This document shows positions 3,456 to 8,642 of a stretch of 13,456 nt of DNA, piece after piece. The notes under the pieces are model-generated. The model saw only the letters and a program-made list of their open reading frames with translations, ran no database searches and had not been told where the DNA came from. The stretch spans positions 1 through 13,456 of IMG/VR virus record IMGVR_UViG_2548876862_000021. The stretch is one strand, 5' to 3'. How positions within the stretch are numbered: the first letter of the stretch is position 1; each line of letters starts with the position of its first letter. This DNA is from a virus. Lineage: Duplodnaviria; Heunggongvirae; Uroviricota; Caudoviricetes. The position numbers were made by a program, and so were the translations under genes.

Positions 3456-4335
3456 CGTGTTCACCCTCACGAACTTTCAGGTAGGTATTATCGTTAAGCA
3501 GGAAATCAAATCCCTTTTTGTGCCAGACGGTTCCGCGCTGATGGTTTGGGCGCTCTTCGAACATCCATCGGCAATTTTCGCCTACGTAGCTCAAATAATT
3601 TCTCCAGTCCTGCATCGTGAAACCATGCCCGTCAAGCTGGCGGGTTATCACTCCGGCTTTGCGCCAGAACGTTCGGATCTGGTTTTTACGCTTGTCATTC
3701 AGTGCGCGGATTCTTGGCGCTTCAGGAAGGATTTCGTGGTAAGCATCGACAACATCCTGACAGCTAACGGAAGGTTTTTTCTTGTCAGACTTTTTGTCTG
3801 CTGTGGCACTCTCTAATACGTCAGTATTAGAGATATTATTTATATTATTGTTTATGGACAACCGTTGGACAACCGTTGGACAATCTCCGCTGAGAGCCGC
3901 GCCATTACTGGTGTTTGCGTTGGACAACCGTTGGACAACCGTTGGACAATTTTTTGCCTGAAAATCGTCATATTTAACGATTGTAAACAGGCTAAATTTC
4001 TTCCCCATCGAGCAAATATTAAGCATACCTTTCGACTCAAAAGTCCGTAATAAGCTCCGAACTTTGTTGTCGGGGATGAATGTTTCTCTGACCAGCGACG
4101 GGCGTCCAGTTATCATCTGACCGCGATCAACAGTTATCGGACCGATATCCGTATTGACGACAGTAGATTCGTGATTAGCCTTGAGGATTAAGTGAAGCCA
4201 AAGATGTACTGCCTGAGAGTCCTTATAGAGCCTGCTGTCCATAAACTGGCGGTGTATAGAGACATACCCCATACTGGATGCCTCCTGATGTTGTACAGGG
4301 TTATGCCTGTAATCAGCTAACTTAACGACGCCCAT
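3445..4335 (-). CDS. Replication initiator, lambda O-like (iteron-binding)
   Basis: 296-aa ORF immediately upstream of the helicase; contains the ori iterons inside its coding sequence (encoded peptide repeat CPTVVQRLSN), as in lambda O; AGGAG 6 nt upstream of the ATG. Confidence 0.75.
   Translation of the reverse strand: MGVVKLADYRHNPVQHQEASSMGYVSIHRQFMDSRLYKDSQAVHLWLHLILKANHESTVVNTDIGPITVDRGQMITGRPSLVRETFIPDNKVRSLLRTFESKGMLNICSMGKKFSLFTIVKYDDFQAKNCPTVVQRLSNANTSNGAALSGDCPTVVQRLSINNNINNISNTDVLESATADKKSDKKKPSVSCQDVVDAYHEILPEAPRIRALNDKRKNQIRTFWRKAGVITRQLDGHGFTMQDWRNYLSYVGENCRWMFEERPNHQRGTVWHKKGFDFLLNDNTYLKVREGEHDDR
3813..3950. repeat. Replication origin: two clusters of three direct ~11-bp iterons (GTTGGACAACC) plus flanking AT-rich stretch
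   Basis: Seen directly: 3856-3884 GGACAACCGTTGGACAACCGTTGGACAAT and 3919-3950 CGTTGGACAACCGTTGGACAACCGTTGGACAAT; AT-rich 3813-3855 (TATTAGAGATATTATTTATATTATTGTTTAT) lies downstream in the direction of O transcription, the lambda ori arrangement. Confidence 0.7.
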
Positions 4336-4483
4336 GTTTCACTCCTGCTTTGGCTAGTCTGTAAACACCAACAAGGCGCTCTGCGAACGCCCTGTTATTT
4401 GCTGCGGCTACCACTAATCCCTCAGGTGAATCAGGGTGTCGAATCTCTTCTTTTTCCTGGTATTTCTTACGACGTTTTGTCAT
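4322..4483 (-). CDS. Hypothetical small basic protein (53 aa) between cII and O
   Basis: Hand-found ORF MTKRRKKYQEKEEIRHPDSPEGLVVAAANNRAFAERLVGVYRLAKAGVKHGRR, AGGAG 6 nt upstream of ATG 4483-4481; 3' end overlaps the O start by 14 nt. Below track threshold. Confidence 0.35.
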   Translation of the reverse strand: MTKRRKKYQEKEEIRHPDSPEGLVVAAANNRAFAERLVGVYRLAKAGVKHGRR

Positions 4484-4517
4484 AATTACTCCTGTGGATT
4501 GATCCAGTCTTTCTACA

Positions 4518-4796
4518 TCAGGCCTCGAAGAATTCGCCGTTCTTCGGGGCTTTTTCTTTTGTCAGCATTCTGGCTACTTTCTTAGCCAGTTCCGCCAACT
4601 CCTCGTCTTCAACACCCCATTCAAGAACAGCCAGAAGCATTCCCATTTTGGGGATGAAGCTATCTTTCCATCGCGAAATTTGCGATTCATTAATCCCTAA
4701 CGCGTCGGCAACCTTTCGCTGACCACGTACAGCAATTCGATTCAGGATGTTGCTTGTAATTGCATTCGCTTTCTTGCGAGTACTTGTAAGTTGCAT
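4518..4796 (-). CDS. cII: cII-like transcriptional activator
   Basis: Track ORF 4518..4883 contains MQLTSTRKKANAITSNILNRIAVRGQRKVADALGINESQISRWKDSFIPKMGMLLAVLEWGVEDEE..., aligning with lambda CII (QISRWK...MLLAVLEWGV). Start set at ATG 4796-4794 so that nutR lies outside the gene. Confidence 0.8.
   Translation of the reverse strand: MQLTSTRKKANAITSNILNRIAVRGQRKVADALGINESQISRWKDSFIPKMGMLLAVLEWGVEDEELAELAKKVARMLTKEKAPKNGEFFEA
4522..4560 (+). terminator. Intrinsic terminator on the strand antisense to the cII 3' end (oop-like)
   Basis: 11-bp stem (GCCTCGAAGAA / TTCTTCGGGGC, one G-U) with 7-nt loop, directly followed by TTTTTCTTTT. Candidate extended -10 (TGtCATAAT, 4478-4486) about 40 nt upstream. 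Confidence 0.5.
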
Positions 4797-4854
4797 ATGT
4801 AAGTATTTCCTTAACAAATAAGAAGTTATGCGCATCAAATTATGCGCGTTGTAT

Positions 4855-4898
4855 TCCCGCATTTCGGCGGGAATGATGACCATGACTGTTAAAGAGCG
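4855..4898 (-). promoter_or_regulatory. nutR-like site: boxA (CGCTCTTTAACA) followed by boxB hairpin
   Basis: Read on minus strand: boxA at 4898-4887, 14-nt spacer, boxB TCCCGC-CGAAAT-GCGGGA at 4872-4855; the boxB 18-mer is identical to the one upstream of N. Confidence 0.6.
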
Positions 4899-4904
4899 GT
4901 GTTA

Positions 4905-5101
4905 CTATTTGTTTTTCTTGTTGCTTGGGAAAGGACGAACTTCCTCTCCAATCACACTGCCATCAGGCTTTACCGTAACCATGATGTTACGGCCTGCCAG
5001 AATGGCCTTGCTGATAGCGCACTGGATTACACCAAAGTCACTGGCTGCTTTAGCCTGTCCATGGATTTTGGCGTAATCGGCAAGTGTCATTCGAATCATA
5101 T
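4905..5101 (-). CDS. cro: Cro-like repressor
   Basis: [62 protein letters not shown] aligns with lambda Cro ([22 protein letters not shown]...PFPSNKK). Track start is GTG 5105; I prefer ATG 5101-5099 with GGAGAG upstream. Confidence 0.8.
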
Positions 5102-5128
5102 GCACTCTCCGTTATTAACCATGAACAA

Positions 5129-5198
5129 AGAATACCACAGGTATTCAAAGCAATCAATACTCAGGGTATTTTTAGTTTAAGTACCTTAGCTATTAGAA
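5129..5198. promoter_or_regulatory. OR region: three 15-bp operators (AATACC-N3-GGTATT) with divergent PR and PRM
   Basis: 5131-5145 AATACCACAGGTATT (perfect palindrome), 5156-5170 AATACTCAGGGTATT (1 mismatch), 5180-5194 AGTACCTTAGCTATT (2 mismatches); centre spacing 25 and 24 bp. PR on minus: -35 TTGATT (5157-5152), 17-bp spacer, -10 TATTCT (5134-5129). Candidate PRM -10 TAGAAT 5193-5198. Confidence 0.65.
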
Positions 5199-5205
5199 TT
5201 AAGCT

Positions 5206-5922
5206 ATGGAAAATAAAAAATCACTGACGACAGAACAGCTCGAAGACGCTAAGCGGCTTAAGGCTTTGTATGAGTCAAAAAAGAAAGAATTGGGAATAAC
5301 CCAATACTCAATCGCTGATGAACTGGGTATCACCCAAGGAGCGGTAGGGCATTATCTTAATGGCAGAAACGCGCTAAACGTTGAGGTCGCATCTGGTTTT
5401 GCACGTTTGTTGCAAGTCTCAATTGCTGATTTTAGCCAGTCAATTGCTGCCAAGGTTGCAGAACAGGCAGAAAGCCTTAAGAGCGATGCCAACGTAAGGT
5501 ATGCAGGGGAATACAGAGCAGGAAAGAGGTATCCGGTGTTAAGCAGTATCCAGGCTGGCTCGTGGTGTGAAGCATGCGAACCATACACCATTAAAGACAT
5601 AGATGTTTGGCTTGAGTCTGACGCGCATATTCAAGGTAATGCGTTCTGGCTTAAAGTGGAAGGTGATTCAATGACGGCACCGGTTGGGTTAAGCATTCCA
5701 GAGGGAACATTCGTTCTTTTCGATACCGGAAGGGAGGCGATCAACGGCAGCTTGGTCATAGCAAAACTTTCTGACTCTAACGAAGCAACATTCAAGAAGC
5801 TGATAATCGACGGCGGAAATAAATACCTCAAGGGACTTAATCCTGCATGGCCTCTCGTGCCAATCAATGGAAACTGCAAGATTATAGGCGTTGCAATTGA
5901 GACAAAACTAAGGCTGGTTTGA
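5206..5922 (+). CDS. cI: CI-type prophage repressor (HTH N-terminal domain plus S24 LexA-like autocleavage domain)
   Basis: 238 aa, collinear with lambda CI ([24 protein letters not shown] / FWLEVEGNSMTAP / FKKLIRD all matched by close variants). No Shine-Dalgarno upstream of the ATG. Confidence 0.9.
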   Translation: MENKKSLTTEQLEDAKRLKALYESKKKELGITQYSIADELGITQGAVGHYLNGRNALNVEVASGFARLLQVSIADFSQSIAAKVAEQAESLKSDANVRYAGEYRAGKRYPVLSSIQAGSWCEACEPYTIKDIDVWLESDAHIQGNAFWLKVEGDSMTAPVGLSIPEGTFVLFDTGREAINGSLVIAKLSDSNEATFKKLIIDGGNKYLKGLNPAWPLVPINGNCKIIGVAIETKLRLV

Positions 5923-5939
5923 TCACGCAAGGGGCGATT

Positions 5940-6308
5940 ATGGTTGGAACCGCTATAGCAAGCTTTTTTGGGATGTTGGCAATCTCGACAATTTACGGCT
6001 TAGCGCATGCTTTTATTGCGAAATCTCTATCAGAAAAAATAAGCCAGGCTTGGGCGCATAGATCAGCTCGTTTCATGATTCTGGTGATCATAGCAATACA
6101 AGGGATATCTGCATTTATCCTCTATGGATCAAGCTTATACCTATTGTATCAAGGCGCGACATTTACGCCTTACACCAGTGATTACGGAACTCTATACGAT
6201 GGTAGTGAAGACATCACTGTGGCTTGGATCGTCTTTGGTTTATCTATGGCCGTGTCTGTTGTAGCAGACATCATTAAGGTAATTCTCGTCTTAACCTTCG
6301 CTGACTAA
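5940..6308 (+). CDS. Small multi-pass membrane protein co-transcribed with cI (rexAB/sieB-position; candidate exclusion or abortive-infection factor)
   Basis: Track ORF 5919..6308 begins at a TTG overlapping the cI stop; ATG at 5940 has AAGGGG about 6 nt upstream. Several long hydrophobic segments consistent with transmembrane helices (AIASFFGMLAISTIYGLAHAFIA, FMILVIIAIQGISAFILYG, VAWIVFGLSMAVSVVADIIKVILVL). Confidence 0.6.
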   Translation: MVGTAIASFFGMLAISTIYGLAHAFIAKSLSEKISQAWAHRSARFMILVIIAIQGISAFILYGSSLYLLYQGATFTPYTSDYGTLYDGSEDITVAWIVFGLSMAVSVVADIIKVILVLTFAD

Positions 6309-6438
6309 CCTATAATCCCGGCAGCAATAGCTATCGGGATCCACTTCACATATCCCGCATAAAAAGCACTGAACAAGCAGACACCGAAAAAATAAATATC
6401 CTTTGTATTCATTTGCTTATCATTATTTCACCAAAAAT

Positions 6439-6480
6439 AAATACCTTGGGTATTTACACAATAAAATACCTACAGTATTC
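6439..6480 (+). promoter_or_regulatory. OL region: two operators of the same AATACC-N3-GGTATT family, with PL
   Basis: 6439-6453 AATACCTTGGGTATT (perfect), 6464-6478 AATACCTACAGTATT (1 mismatch), centres 25 bp apart. Candidate PL -35 TTTACA 6452-6457, 17-bp spacer, -10 TATTCT 6475-6480, the same -10 hexamer as PR. Confidence 0.6.
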
Positions 6481-6526
6481 TTTAGCCATCAGCAGGACGC
6501 TGGAAGCCAAACGGAACAGATTGGCA

Positions 6527-6568
6527 GGCTCTTTAACATTGATGGGATTGTCCCGCCGAAATGCGGGA
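6527..6568 (+). promoter_or_regulatory. nutL-like site: boxA (GGCTCTTTAACA) followed by boxB hairpin
   Basis: boxA 6527-6538 resembles the rrn/lambda boxA consensus; boxB TCCCGC-CGAAAT-GCGGGA at 6551-6568, identical to the nutR boxB; located between PL and N. Confidence 0.6.
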
Positions 6569-6675
6569 ACCAAAGAGTAGTTGGCTTTGGGGTGACGTGA
6601 AGTGCAGCTGCACGACGGCAACCGGAAGATAAGCACCCGGCGCGTCACCGCCAAAGTCAATCATCGGAGGTCAAC

Positions 6676-6975
6676 ATGACAGTAGTCATTACATATCTGG
6701 CTGACGATAACGCCAGAAATCGCCGCAGAGCACGCAGACAGGCTCAACGTGAGCAGGCAATGCAAGAGCAGCGACTGGCGCGAAAAATTGCGCTAAAGCT
6801 CTCTGGTTGCGTCAGAGCAGATAAAGCAGCATCACTCGGAAGCCTTCGCTGCAAGAAGGCAGAAGAAGTCGAGAGTAAACAGAATCGCATTTACTACCGC
6901 AAGCCACGCAGTGAAATGGGTGTGACTTGTGTTGGTCGCCAGAAAATGAAATTAAGCAGCAAACCACTTATTTGA
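6676..6975 (+). CDS. N: N-like transcription antiterminator
   Basis: 99 aa; N-terminal arginine-rich motif (NARNRRRARRQAQREQA); C-terminus RIYYRKPRSEMGVTCVGRQKMKLSSKPLI parallels lambda N (RTWYSKPGERGITCSGRQKIKGKSIPLI); GGAGG 6 nt upstream; directly downstream of nutL. Confidence 0.75.
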   Translation: MTVVITYLADDNARNRRRARRQAQREQAMQEQRLARKIALKLSGCVRADKAASLGSLRCKKAEEVESKQNRIYYRKPRSEMGVTCVGRQKMKLSSKPLI

Positions 6976-6983
6976 GGTGAGAT

Positions 6984-7070
6984 ATGGAAGAAGAATTTGA
7001 AGAGTTCGAAGAGCATCCGCAGGATGTGATGGAACAGTACCAGGACTATCCGTATGACTACGACTATTGA
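6984..7070 (+). CDS. Hypothetical 28-aa highly acidic, aromatic-rich peptide
   Basis: Hand-found: MEEEFEEFEEHPQDVMEQYQDYPYDYDY, preceded by GAGGTGAG. Very short, so coding status is uncertain. Confidence 0.3.
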   Translation: MEEEFEEFEEHPQDVMEQYQDYPYDYDY

Positions 7071-7254
7071 TAAAAATCAATGGTGTGGACAATTCAAGCG
7101 ATGCAATGGATGCAAGCTGCAATCGGAATGCATGGTTAAGCCTGAAGAAATGTTTCCTGTAATGGAAGATAGGAAATATGTCGATAAATGGGCAATACGA
7201 ACGACGGCAATGATTGCCAGAGAACTTGGTGAACTGAACAACAAGGCTGCCTGA
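7054..7254 (+). CDS. Hypothetical small Cys-containing protein (66 aa)
   Basis: Track ORF with C-x5-C-x2-C-x5-C spacing; weak ribosome-binding site; followed by a hairpin plus T-run. Confidence 0.35.
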   Translation: MTTTIDKNQWCGQFKRCNGCKLQSECMVKPEEMFPVMEDRKYVDKWAIRTTAMIARELGELNNKAA

Positions 7255-7290
7255 TGGTGGCCTTTATTTTCTTATTTGAGAGGAATTAAT

Positions 7291-7914
7291 ATGTCATCAA
7301 TCCGCTTAACTACGAGAATGAAAGAGGAAATCGCTCGTAACGCTTTAATTAAGTCTGGGGTTTTCACTGAGCTTGAAGAAGTAACAAAGTTAAAGAACCA
7401 GCTTGCACTTGACGCCAGAGTTATTGCGTTTGGCGGTAAAAAGAAAACTGAGGAAGTGGATCAGTTATCATCCAAGTTGGTAGCTATAAGTGAAGAACTT
7501 GAAAAGATGGGATGTTCATTTTACTCATACGATTTTCGTTCTACTTCAATTTATCTGACTGTATCTGGCAGAAGGGTTGGATGGCATTCATATGGGAAAG
7601 ACGGCAACGGCGAAGATATATTTCCCCCTACTCCAACCAAAGATAAATGCATGTTTGACGCAGAACACGAAATAACAAAAAGGTTTGATGAAATCTGCGC
7701 ATTGCAACAAAAACTTGAAGCCAAGAAAAAGGATATCGAATCAAATGTATGGGCTGCTTTGAACTCAGTCACAACAGTTAAGCGACTTATTGAGGTTTGG
7801 CCTGAAAGCAAAGAATTGCTACCAAAAGAAGCAGATAAAGCAAGTACAGCACTTCCTGCTTTACGGGTAGAAGATTTGAATAAGATGACTGGACTTCCTT
7901 CCGAGGCTGCATAG
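7291..7914 (+). CDS. Hypothetical protein (207 aa), first gene of low-GC cassette
   Basis: Track ORF 7276..7914; start set at ATG 7291 preceded by GAGAGGAA. GC about 38-40% in hand-counted 60-nt samples versus about 48-50% in flanking genes. No recognisable motif. Confidence 0.6.
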   Translation: MSSIRLTTRMKEEIARNALIKSGVFTELEEVTKLKNQLALDARVIAFGGKKKTEEVDQLSSKLVAISEELEKMGCSFYSYDFRSTSIYLTVSGRRVGWHSYGKDGNGEDIFPPTPTKDKCMFDAEHEITKRFDEICALQQKLEAKKKDIESNVWAALNSVTTVKRLIEVWPESKELLPKEADKASTALPALRVEDLNKMTGLPSEAA

Positions 7915-7977
7915 TCGGCCTTTATTTTTAGCATAAACAACAGAATAAACACTGCACTGAATTATTTGAGGTTAGAT

Positions 7978-8552: not shown

Positions 8553-8578
8553 GCCCTCCAGTGTGAGGGCTTTTTTAT
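8553..8578 (+). terminator. Intrinsic terminator downstream of the low-GC cassette
   Basis: GCCCTC-CAGTGT-GAGGGC stem-loop immediately followed by TTTTTTAT. Confidence 0.6.
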
Positions 8579-8642
8579 ATGCATACCAATAACGCTTCAC
8601 TTGAGGCGTTTTCGTTATGCAATCAAATATAAGGAGTTACCC

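Follow-up and report, generated by a model that had tools for sequence, protein, structure and literature searches.

Putative nutL and nutR sites of a lambdoid prophage of HK620 type and their relationship to the N-boxB systems of P22, phage 21 and lambda

Introduction

Among the closest described systems to the locus considered here is that of phage HK620, whose GenBank entry (AF335538) has nutL described as 'putative N-utilization leftward' and nutR as 'putative N-utilization rightward'. Structures are available for the boxB elements of two other phages. In P22 nutR (ACCGCCGACAACGCGGT; NMR structure 1A4T) a C.C mismatch is reported to close the loop of boxB-right (PMC6023938). In the complex with the N peptide, the looped-out C of the loop is reported to make contact with peptide residues His7 and Arg11 (PMC12550061). 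In phage 21 (NMR structure 1NYB) the four central nucleotides of the hexaloop make a GNRA-like core, enclosed by a C.C pair. For boxA the rrn consensus reads UGCUCUUUA (PMC6614797), and NusA and NusB/E have a higher affinity for the rrn-type boxA, owing to its extra U, than for that of lambda (PMC2724277; PMC6614797).

Here we compare with these systems a viral DNA stretch of 13,456 nt, hereafter the window. The original prediction was that an identical 18-nt boxB hairpin occurs once on each strand, after cro on the minus strand and before N on the plus strand, each copy lying 12-14 nt downstream of a near-identical boxA, and that these are N-utilisation sites. Each of these points was borne out, as detailed below. 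The two hairpins are very probably, judging from their sequence and surroundings, the boxB elements of nutL and nutR in a lambdoid prophage of HK620 type.

Results and discussion

Sequence and predicted structure of the two sites

The window contains just two copies of the 18-mer TCCCGCCGAAATGCGGGA, one on the minus strand at 4855-4872 and one on the plus strand at 6551-6568, with no third copy even when up to two mismatches are allowed. By chance 0.01 copies would be expected, and two or more copies were seen in 0 of 200 shuffles. The perfect inverted repeat around boxB is slightly longer, at 19 nt (4854-4872 and 6551-6569). The boxA sequence GCTCTTTAACA also has exactly two copies in the window, at 4887-4897 (minus strand) and 6528-6538 (plus strand); extended to 12-mers, the nutR and nutL versions agree at 11 of 12 positions. 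The components of the two sites are as follows.

6527..6538, plus strand: nutL boxA, GGCTCTTTAACA, with the rrn-type core GCUCUUUA
6539..6550, plus strand: nutL spacer, 12 nt, TTGATGGGATTG
6551..6568, plus strand: nutL boxB hairpin, stem UCCCGC/GCGGGA and loop CGAAAU, inside the nutL annotated in HK620
4887..4898, minus strand: nutR boxA, CGCTCTTTAACA, to which the HK620 nutR annotation maps
4873..4886, minus strand: nutR spacer, 14 nt, GTCATGGTCATCAT, one base different from HK620
4853..4874, minus strand: nutR boxB hairpin, containing the common 18-mer at 4855-4872, its stem reaching 8 bp in context

The first seven nucleotides of the nutL spacer resemble the nutR spacer (inverted repeat I3). 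At both sites GCTCTTTAACA has the form CGCUCUU(U)A expected of a boxA and matches the rrn consensus. At each site it is followed, in sense orientation and within the usual distance of some 8-15 nt, by a hairpin with a purine-rich loop of the usual 5-6 nt. The RNA fold prediction proposed as a check gave the hairpin in native context at both sites, with a stem of 6-8 bp and the 6-nt loop CGAAAU, and the isolated 18-mer has a folding free energy of -9.7 kcal/mol. No Rfam covariance model matched anywhere in the window at E-values up to 1.

Genomic setting

Each boxA-spacer-boxB unit has the orientation of the early transcript on which it lies, nutR that from pR and nutL that from pL. The features that define this setting are listed here.

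6453..6481, plus strand: pL-like early leftward promoter for the nutL and N transcript, TTTACA-17-TATTCT in a promoter scan
6676..6975, plus strand: N antiterminator gene, 99 aa, with the arginine-rich motif (ARM) at residues 12-28 (NARNRRRARRQAQREQA, encoded at 6709-6759)
4905..5105, minus strand: cro, which immediately precedes nutR on the pR transcript (Pfam Cro, E = 3.6e-26; HK620 cro maps to 4905-5099)
4518..4796, minus strand: cII, the next gene after nutR/tR1 (Pfam Phage_CII, E = 3.5e-42, residues 30-120; annotated as cII in HK620)
7243..7264, plus strand: terminator-like hairpin with T-run from a terminator scan, the first after N on the pL transcript
7903-7922, 8553-8570 and 8591-8610, plus strand: further terminator-like hairpins after N, from the same scan

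The nutL boxB lies about 70 nt downstream of the pL-like promoter and 108 nt upstream of N. The nutR site, boxA first, begins 7 nt past the cro stop codon and precedes cII. The mechanically called cII reading frame extends to 4883; since the CII domain begins only at residue 30, the true start is placed near 4796 and cII would not overlap the nutR hairpin. The stretch between the two sites contains cI (5206-5922) and an ORF of 129 aa that has no match in Pfam. A third inverted repeat (5127-5171 and 6439-6483) is made up of the operator regions OR and OL. Both sites are thus on early transcripts, after pL and after pR/cro respectively, and before the first terminators. The four terminator-like hairpins after N are likely to be the signals that N-modified polymerase would read through. 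The HK620 early left operon has annotated tL1, tL2A, tL2B and tL2C; homology between the window and HK620 stops near 6867.

Stable GC-rich hairpins shortly after promoters might themselves be intrinsic terminators or attenuators of early transcription rather than sites of antiterminator recruitment, and the HK620 record does place tR1 directly after nutR. Neither hairpin is followed by a T-run, however, the nutL hairpin running into ACCAAAGAG and that of nutR into AUACAACG, and the terminator scan detects neither of them; on these two grounds we reject the terminator reading, which we consider extremely unlikely. The presence of boxA points the same way. In an exact-match scan of IMG/VR for the 18-mer, which found at least 119 contigs, most with two inverted copies, GCTCTTTAACA precedes the hairpin at the fixed nutL- or nutR-type spacing in 210 of 211 copies among the matches listed.

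Relatives, annotation and prevalence

Region 4400-7100 of the window is 98.6% identical to phage HZ41 over its full length and 98-99.6% identical to phi296, HK140, HK620, HK630 and mEpX2 over 88-94% of its length. When the whole 13.5-kb window is considered, coverage by any one phage record stays below 80%; the best matches are mEpX2, with 65%, and IME10, Huey and HK620. With HK620 coordinates converted by adding 2973 to the position in its locus (L001), the annotated nutL (3554-3595) falls at 6527-6568 and nutR (1880-1925) at 4853-4898. These features coincide base for base with the boxA-to-boxB spans in the window, which agrees with the original assignment of N-utilisation sites. The pL annotation (3480-3515 in L001) falls at 6453-6488, the HK620 record also annotates pR, and both boxA sites are marked in the mEpX2 GenBank record too.

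The elements have therefore already been annotated, and the nutL and nutR sites and N of HK620-type phages are known since the HK620 genome of 2001. They are also common: the segment comprising nutL, leader and ARM is present in 526 of 5426 complete Escherichia coli genomes (~10%), coverage being 80% or more in 413 of these. Among the RefSeq E. coli matches listed, N is labelled 'hypothetical protein' and there is no nut feature. Annotated in GenBank since 2001 and carried by about one in ten complete E. coli genomes, the sites are an ordinary finding in themselves, and since the nut mechanism is textbook lambda biology they carry little weight as a discovery.

The N protein

The arginine-rich N-terminus attributed to N is indeed present, as MTVVITYLADDNARNRRRARRQAQREQAM. 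Beyond it, residues 33-99 are ~90% identical to phage 21 N, whereas residues 1-32 are unrelated to that protein. Over its C-terminal 37 residues the protein can be matched to lambda N as present in 6GOV, the structure of an antitermination complex (E = 5e-4). The Pfam N_peptide match to the window N is weak and under the gathering threshold. A tblastn search of the phage collection with the 44 N-terminal residues gave no match, presumably through masking of the ARM as low-complexity sequence, and ARMs in other loci were read from direct translations.

Association of boxB with the N-terminal ARM

The proposal that hairpin and N-terminus form a specific pair gains support from the company that each keeps in other genomes. 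Among the IMG/VR matches listed, 104 nutL-type copies of the 18-mer have enough downstream sequence, and in 101 of these an ARM of the form (N/T)(A/T)R(N/S)(R/S)RRARR follows; in the remaining three the sequence downstream of nutL is unrelated, and we take these to be rearranged or truncated loci. The co-occurrence of boxB and ARM is thus strict across more than 100 viral contigs, and other boxB sequences go with other ARMs. A scan of sites sharing the leader and nutL boxA gave the reciprocal result, with HK620-type boxB accompanied by HK620-type ARM. All 26 cases of phage 21 boxB with the same leader have the ARM of phage 21, while a third boxB class, GGGGATGATTCGTCCCC, the same at nutL and nutR, accompanies a third ARM, KAREIRKLERARKHK. 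For 61 boxA-linked copies of P22 boxB-left, every resolved downstream ARM is RRH(E/A)RRR and none is HK620-type. An N whose ARM varies together with boxB is thus what lies downstream of nutL, and these comparisons of sequence support the HK620-type boxB and ARM as a cognate pair.

Among the matches listed, the distance between the two copies of the 18-mer falls into at least seven classes, from 1152 to 2990 nt. The copies thus flank at least seven lengths of immunity region, from which it follows that the hairpin travels with N and not with cI/cro. The ARM itself occurs in IMG/VR contigs with no fewer than three kinds of C-terminal end. A sequence marking the boundary of an exchanged module would be expected to flank regions of varied length in just this way, and the 19-nt inverted repeat might accordingly act as DNA, either as a protein-binding palindrome or as a recombination or boundary pair for exchange of the immunity module. 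Yet the loop CGAAAT is asymmetric and always lies in the sense of the local transcript, and it is for this asymmetry and orientation that we reject the DNA reading and hold it to be very unlikely. Furthermore, it is the ARM of N, rather than cI/cro, that changes together with the element, and the homology of nut and N leader shared in the flanks is enough to account for module exchange, with no need of a dedicated DNA site.

Members of the HK620 class differ in the spacer and 3' flank but share an invariant hairpin core, a point in favour of its assignment as the boxB of nutL and nutR; in one variant U.G replaces U-A. The stem being invariant, there is no covariation inside the class, so that the RNA structure rests on conservation, orientation and analogy. 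A search of IMG/VR for a changed loop-closing pair (boxA, gap, non-C, CGAAAT) gave 12 matches, all of them unrelated or P22-type, and so no variant of the closing C-G pair within the class. The 16-nt core was also sought in 185,579 species genomes (596 Gb), where 120 copies were found, all single and in unrelated, mostly GC-rich genomes; one has GCTCTT upstream and none is paired. We estimate that a 16-mer should turn up ~280 times by chance in that much sequence; the scan therefore gives no information on host range and serves as a negative control only.

Proposed mode of action

Going by the homologous systems of lambda, P22 and phage 21, RNA polymerase starting from pL or pR would transcribe boxA and then boxB, and the boxB RNA would fold into the hairpin of 6-8 bp with its CGAAAU loop. 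The N protein of the phage itself could then bind the hairpin through its N-terminal ARM, while the rrn-type boxA would recruit NusB/NusE, with NusA and NusG joining. The lambda- and phage-21-like C-terminal part of N would hold the complex on the polymerase which, so modified, would read through the tR1 and tL terminators. Binding of boxB by N, use of Nus factors and read-through of terminators are all inferred here by homology. In the searchable literature, which does not extend to the subscription-journal HK620 genome paper, we found no binding or antitermination data for an HK620-type ARM/boxB, and literature text searches with the boxB or ARM sequence strings gave no match.

Comparison with known systems

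The locus shares with HK620, grouped here with HK140, mEpX2 and HZ41, a nutL that is identical across boxA, spacer and boxB, an identical N ARM and the order cII-nutR-cro-OR-cI-hkaS-OL/pL-nutL-N. It differs from HK620 by the single base in the nutR spacer and in the C-terminal third of N, which in the window reads ...GRQKMKLSSKPLI, of phage 21/lambda type, against ...CLPNVAIYAAGYRKSKQLTAR in HK620.

With lambda there is likeness in the layout and positions of the sites, in the RRRxRR helix motif, in a GNRA-like loop and in a homologous C-terminal RNAP-binding segment. The prediction that boxB differs from that of lambda is correct: the lambda elements, GCCCUGAAGAAGGGC and GCCCUGAAAAAGGGC, have a pentaloop closed by a U-A pair, unlike the window. 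In addition, the lambda boxA (CGCUCUUA) has one U fewer than that of the window, the lambda spacer is 8-9 nt rather than 12-14 nt, and the position of lambda N Trp18 has no aromatic counterpart in the window N. Lambda is, however, the least informative comparison for this boxB, phage 21 being closer for the body of N and P22 nutR for the ARM and boxB.

The resemblance to phage 21 covers the pL leader, the boxA GCTCTTTAACA and residues 33-99 of N, and the DNA is 84.5% identical from window position 6481 on. The loops also have something in common, each being a hexaloop in which pyrimidines enclose four core nucleotides, C[UAAC]C in phage 21 and C[GAAA]U in the window. Otherwise the phage 21 boxB sequences (nutL UCUCAAC-CUAACC-GUUGAGA, nutR CACCU-CUAACC-GGGUG) are both unlike that of the window, and their two stems are unlike each other whereas the window's two are identical. 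The ARM differs too, GTAKSRYKARRAELIAERR in phage 21 against NARNRRRARRQAQREQA here. With neither the hexaloop CUAACC nor that ARM, only the leader and residues 33-99 of N are of phage 21 type.

P22 provides the nearest match to the ARM and boxB. Its boxA is also of rrn type, with the same core in nutL as the window nutL. Its N (gp24) begins with MTVITY, followed by NAKTRRHERRR, where the window N has MTVVITY and NARNRRRARRQ. In BLASTP the similarity of the two N-terminal segments (MTVITYGKSTFAGNAKTRRHERRRKLAIER in P22, MTVVITYLADDNARNRRRARRQAQREQAM in the window) is weak, with 10/22 identities and E = 0.042, and the rest of the P22 protein is unrelated to the window N. The boxB stems share CCGC/GCGG, as seen when A-CCGC-C-GACAA-C-GCGG-U of P22 nutR is set against C-CCGC-C-GA_AA-U-GCGG-G of the window. 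A C.C mismatch closes the loop in P22 and a C.U mismatch in the window, and the loop bases G-A-(C)-A-A of P22 correspond to GAAA in the window, without the looped-out C. Reasoning from P22 nutR and from the phage 21 hexaloop, we consider that CGAAAU most likely forms a GAAA tetraloop of GNRA type stacked on a C.U mismatch.

With so much in common – the CCGC/GCGG stem, a pyrimidine-pyrimidine closing mismatch, the G-A-A-A loop bases and N-termini that align as MTV(V)ITY...NA(K/R)xRR – the nut sites could be served by P22-type specificity, the pair being functionally interchangeable with P22 N and nutR. We regard this as doubtful. Among the resolved ARMs none of HK620 type is found beside a P22-type boxB, nor is the reverse seen. 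The P22 type is further defined by the pentaloop GACAA and the ARM NAKTRRHERRRKLAIER, whereas the window loop lacks the C and, in our own alignment and numbering, the P22 residues His7 and Arg11, reported to contact that looped-out C (PMC12550061), are replaced by Arg and Gln. Judged by sequence, then, the ARM and boxB of the window appear to be related to those of P22 but not the same.

A fourth N-peptide/boxB specificity is accordingly a candidate that we consider evenly balanced between true and false: the P22 nutR type minus its looped-out C, leaving a GAAA tetraloop on a C.U mismatch, with His to Arg and Arg to Gln changes in step, and the whole module grafted onto a phage-21-type N body. 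If true, this would be a clean natural case of stepwise ARM/boxB co-evolution, and the relation to P22 nutR offers a simple, testable example of RNA-peptide co-evolution. Should the pair also prove selective against the partners from lambda, P22 and phage 21, RNA-peptide tethering would gain an orthogonal natural pair. As matters stand, the N encoded in the window appears to be phage-21-like in its body, whereas its ARM/boxB module lies closest to that of P22 nutR.

N mosaicism and boxB variants

When the N gene of the window (6676-6975, plus strand) is compared with those of IMG/VR loci L004-L122, a single arginine-rich motif (ARM) is found joined to at least three distinct C-terminal ends. 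One is phage 21/lambda-like (...GRQKMKLGSKPLI), one HK620-like (...CLPNVAIYAAGYRKSKQLTAR) and a further one ends ...CSGRQKQRGKSIPAYYD, the mosaic joints lying near residues 32 and 62.

Variation is also seen in boxB itself. A third class, GGGGAUGAUUCGUCCCC, is present in loci L140 and L144, the nutL and nutR copies being identical to one another; in L140 they are located as follows.

3598-3614, plus strand, third-class boxB
6986-7002 (minus-strand coordinate, as printed), third-class boxB

The partner N protein has a GVG/GTG start codon, the ARM KAREIRKLERARKHKEATAKRK and a C-terminus of HK620 type. Among the P22-type loci of IMG/VR, one nutR variant reads GCCAC-C-GAUAA-C-GUGGC as against ACCGC-C-GACAA-C-GCGGU; the stem is altered on both sides with pairing preserved, and U replaces the looped-out C.

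Among 5426 complete E. coli genomes, 526 carry the segment running from nutL through the leader to the start of N (for example NZ_CP162987.1, 1420751-1421011). Among the RefSeq matches listed, the N gene beneath the segment is annotated only as 'hypothetical protein'.

RNA structure around the nut sites

Fold prediction gives a long hairpin in the part of the N leader that separates nutL from the N ribosome-binding site (6580-6660, plus strand), and the fold of the entire leader has a z-score of -3.24. Comparison of leaders shows the outer stem, (U/G)UGG(C/U)UUUGG / CCAAAG(U/C)CA(A/C), to be preserved between the HK620-type and phage 21-type classes despite changes on both of its sides; the inner portion is variable and bears insertions of 35-70 nt in some contigs. 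The hairpin presumably recalls the RNase III-sensitive stem of the lambda N leader.

At nutL, boxA (GCUCUUU, 6529-6535, plus strand) is predicted to be able to pair with AAAGAGU at 6571-6577, immediately 3' of boxB, in which case a larger stem encloses boxB. Among the leaders compared, AAAGAG is found at this position in the HK620-type and third-class (L140) sets and is missing from the phage 21-type leaders and from one 11-copy variant. The pairing may be incidental.

At nutR, the minimum-energy fold pairs boxA with the purine-rich Shine-Dalgarno region of cII (4803-4812, minus strand), and the region has a z-score of -3.2. A second hairpin follows nutR, at the tR1 position of the HK620 record.

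4830-4847, minus strand, hairpin GCGCAU-AAUUUG-AUGCGC

A hairpin occupies this position in phage 21 and in the L140 class as well, in each case different from that of the window.

Neighbouring features

A promoter scan returned two matches with identical hexamers, spaced 66 nt apart within the O gene.

3855-3884, plus strand, promoter-like match TGGACA-18-GACAAT
3921-3950, plus strand, promoter-like match TGGACA-18-GACAAT

The annotated rep_origin of HK620 (locus 884-979, corresponding to window 3857-3952) coincides with both, and they are probably origin iterons rather than promoters.

One open reading frame occupies the interval between cI and OL/pL.

5919-6308, plus strand, 129-aa open reading frame

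A Pfam search gave no match to its product. It corresponds to hkaS of HK620, labelled 'unknown' there, and the slot that it holds is filled in lambda by rexAB.
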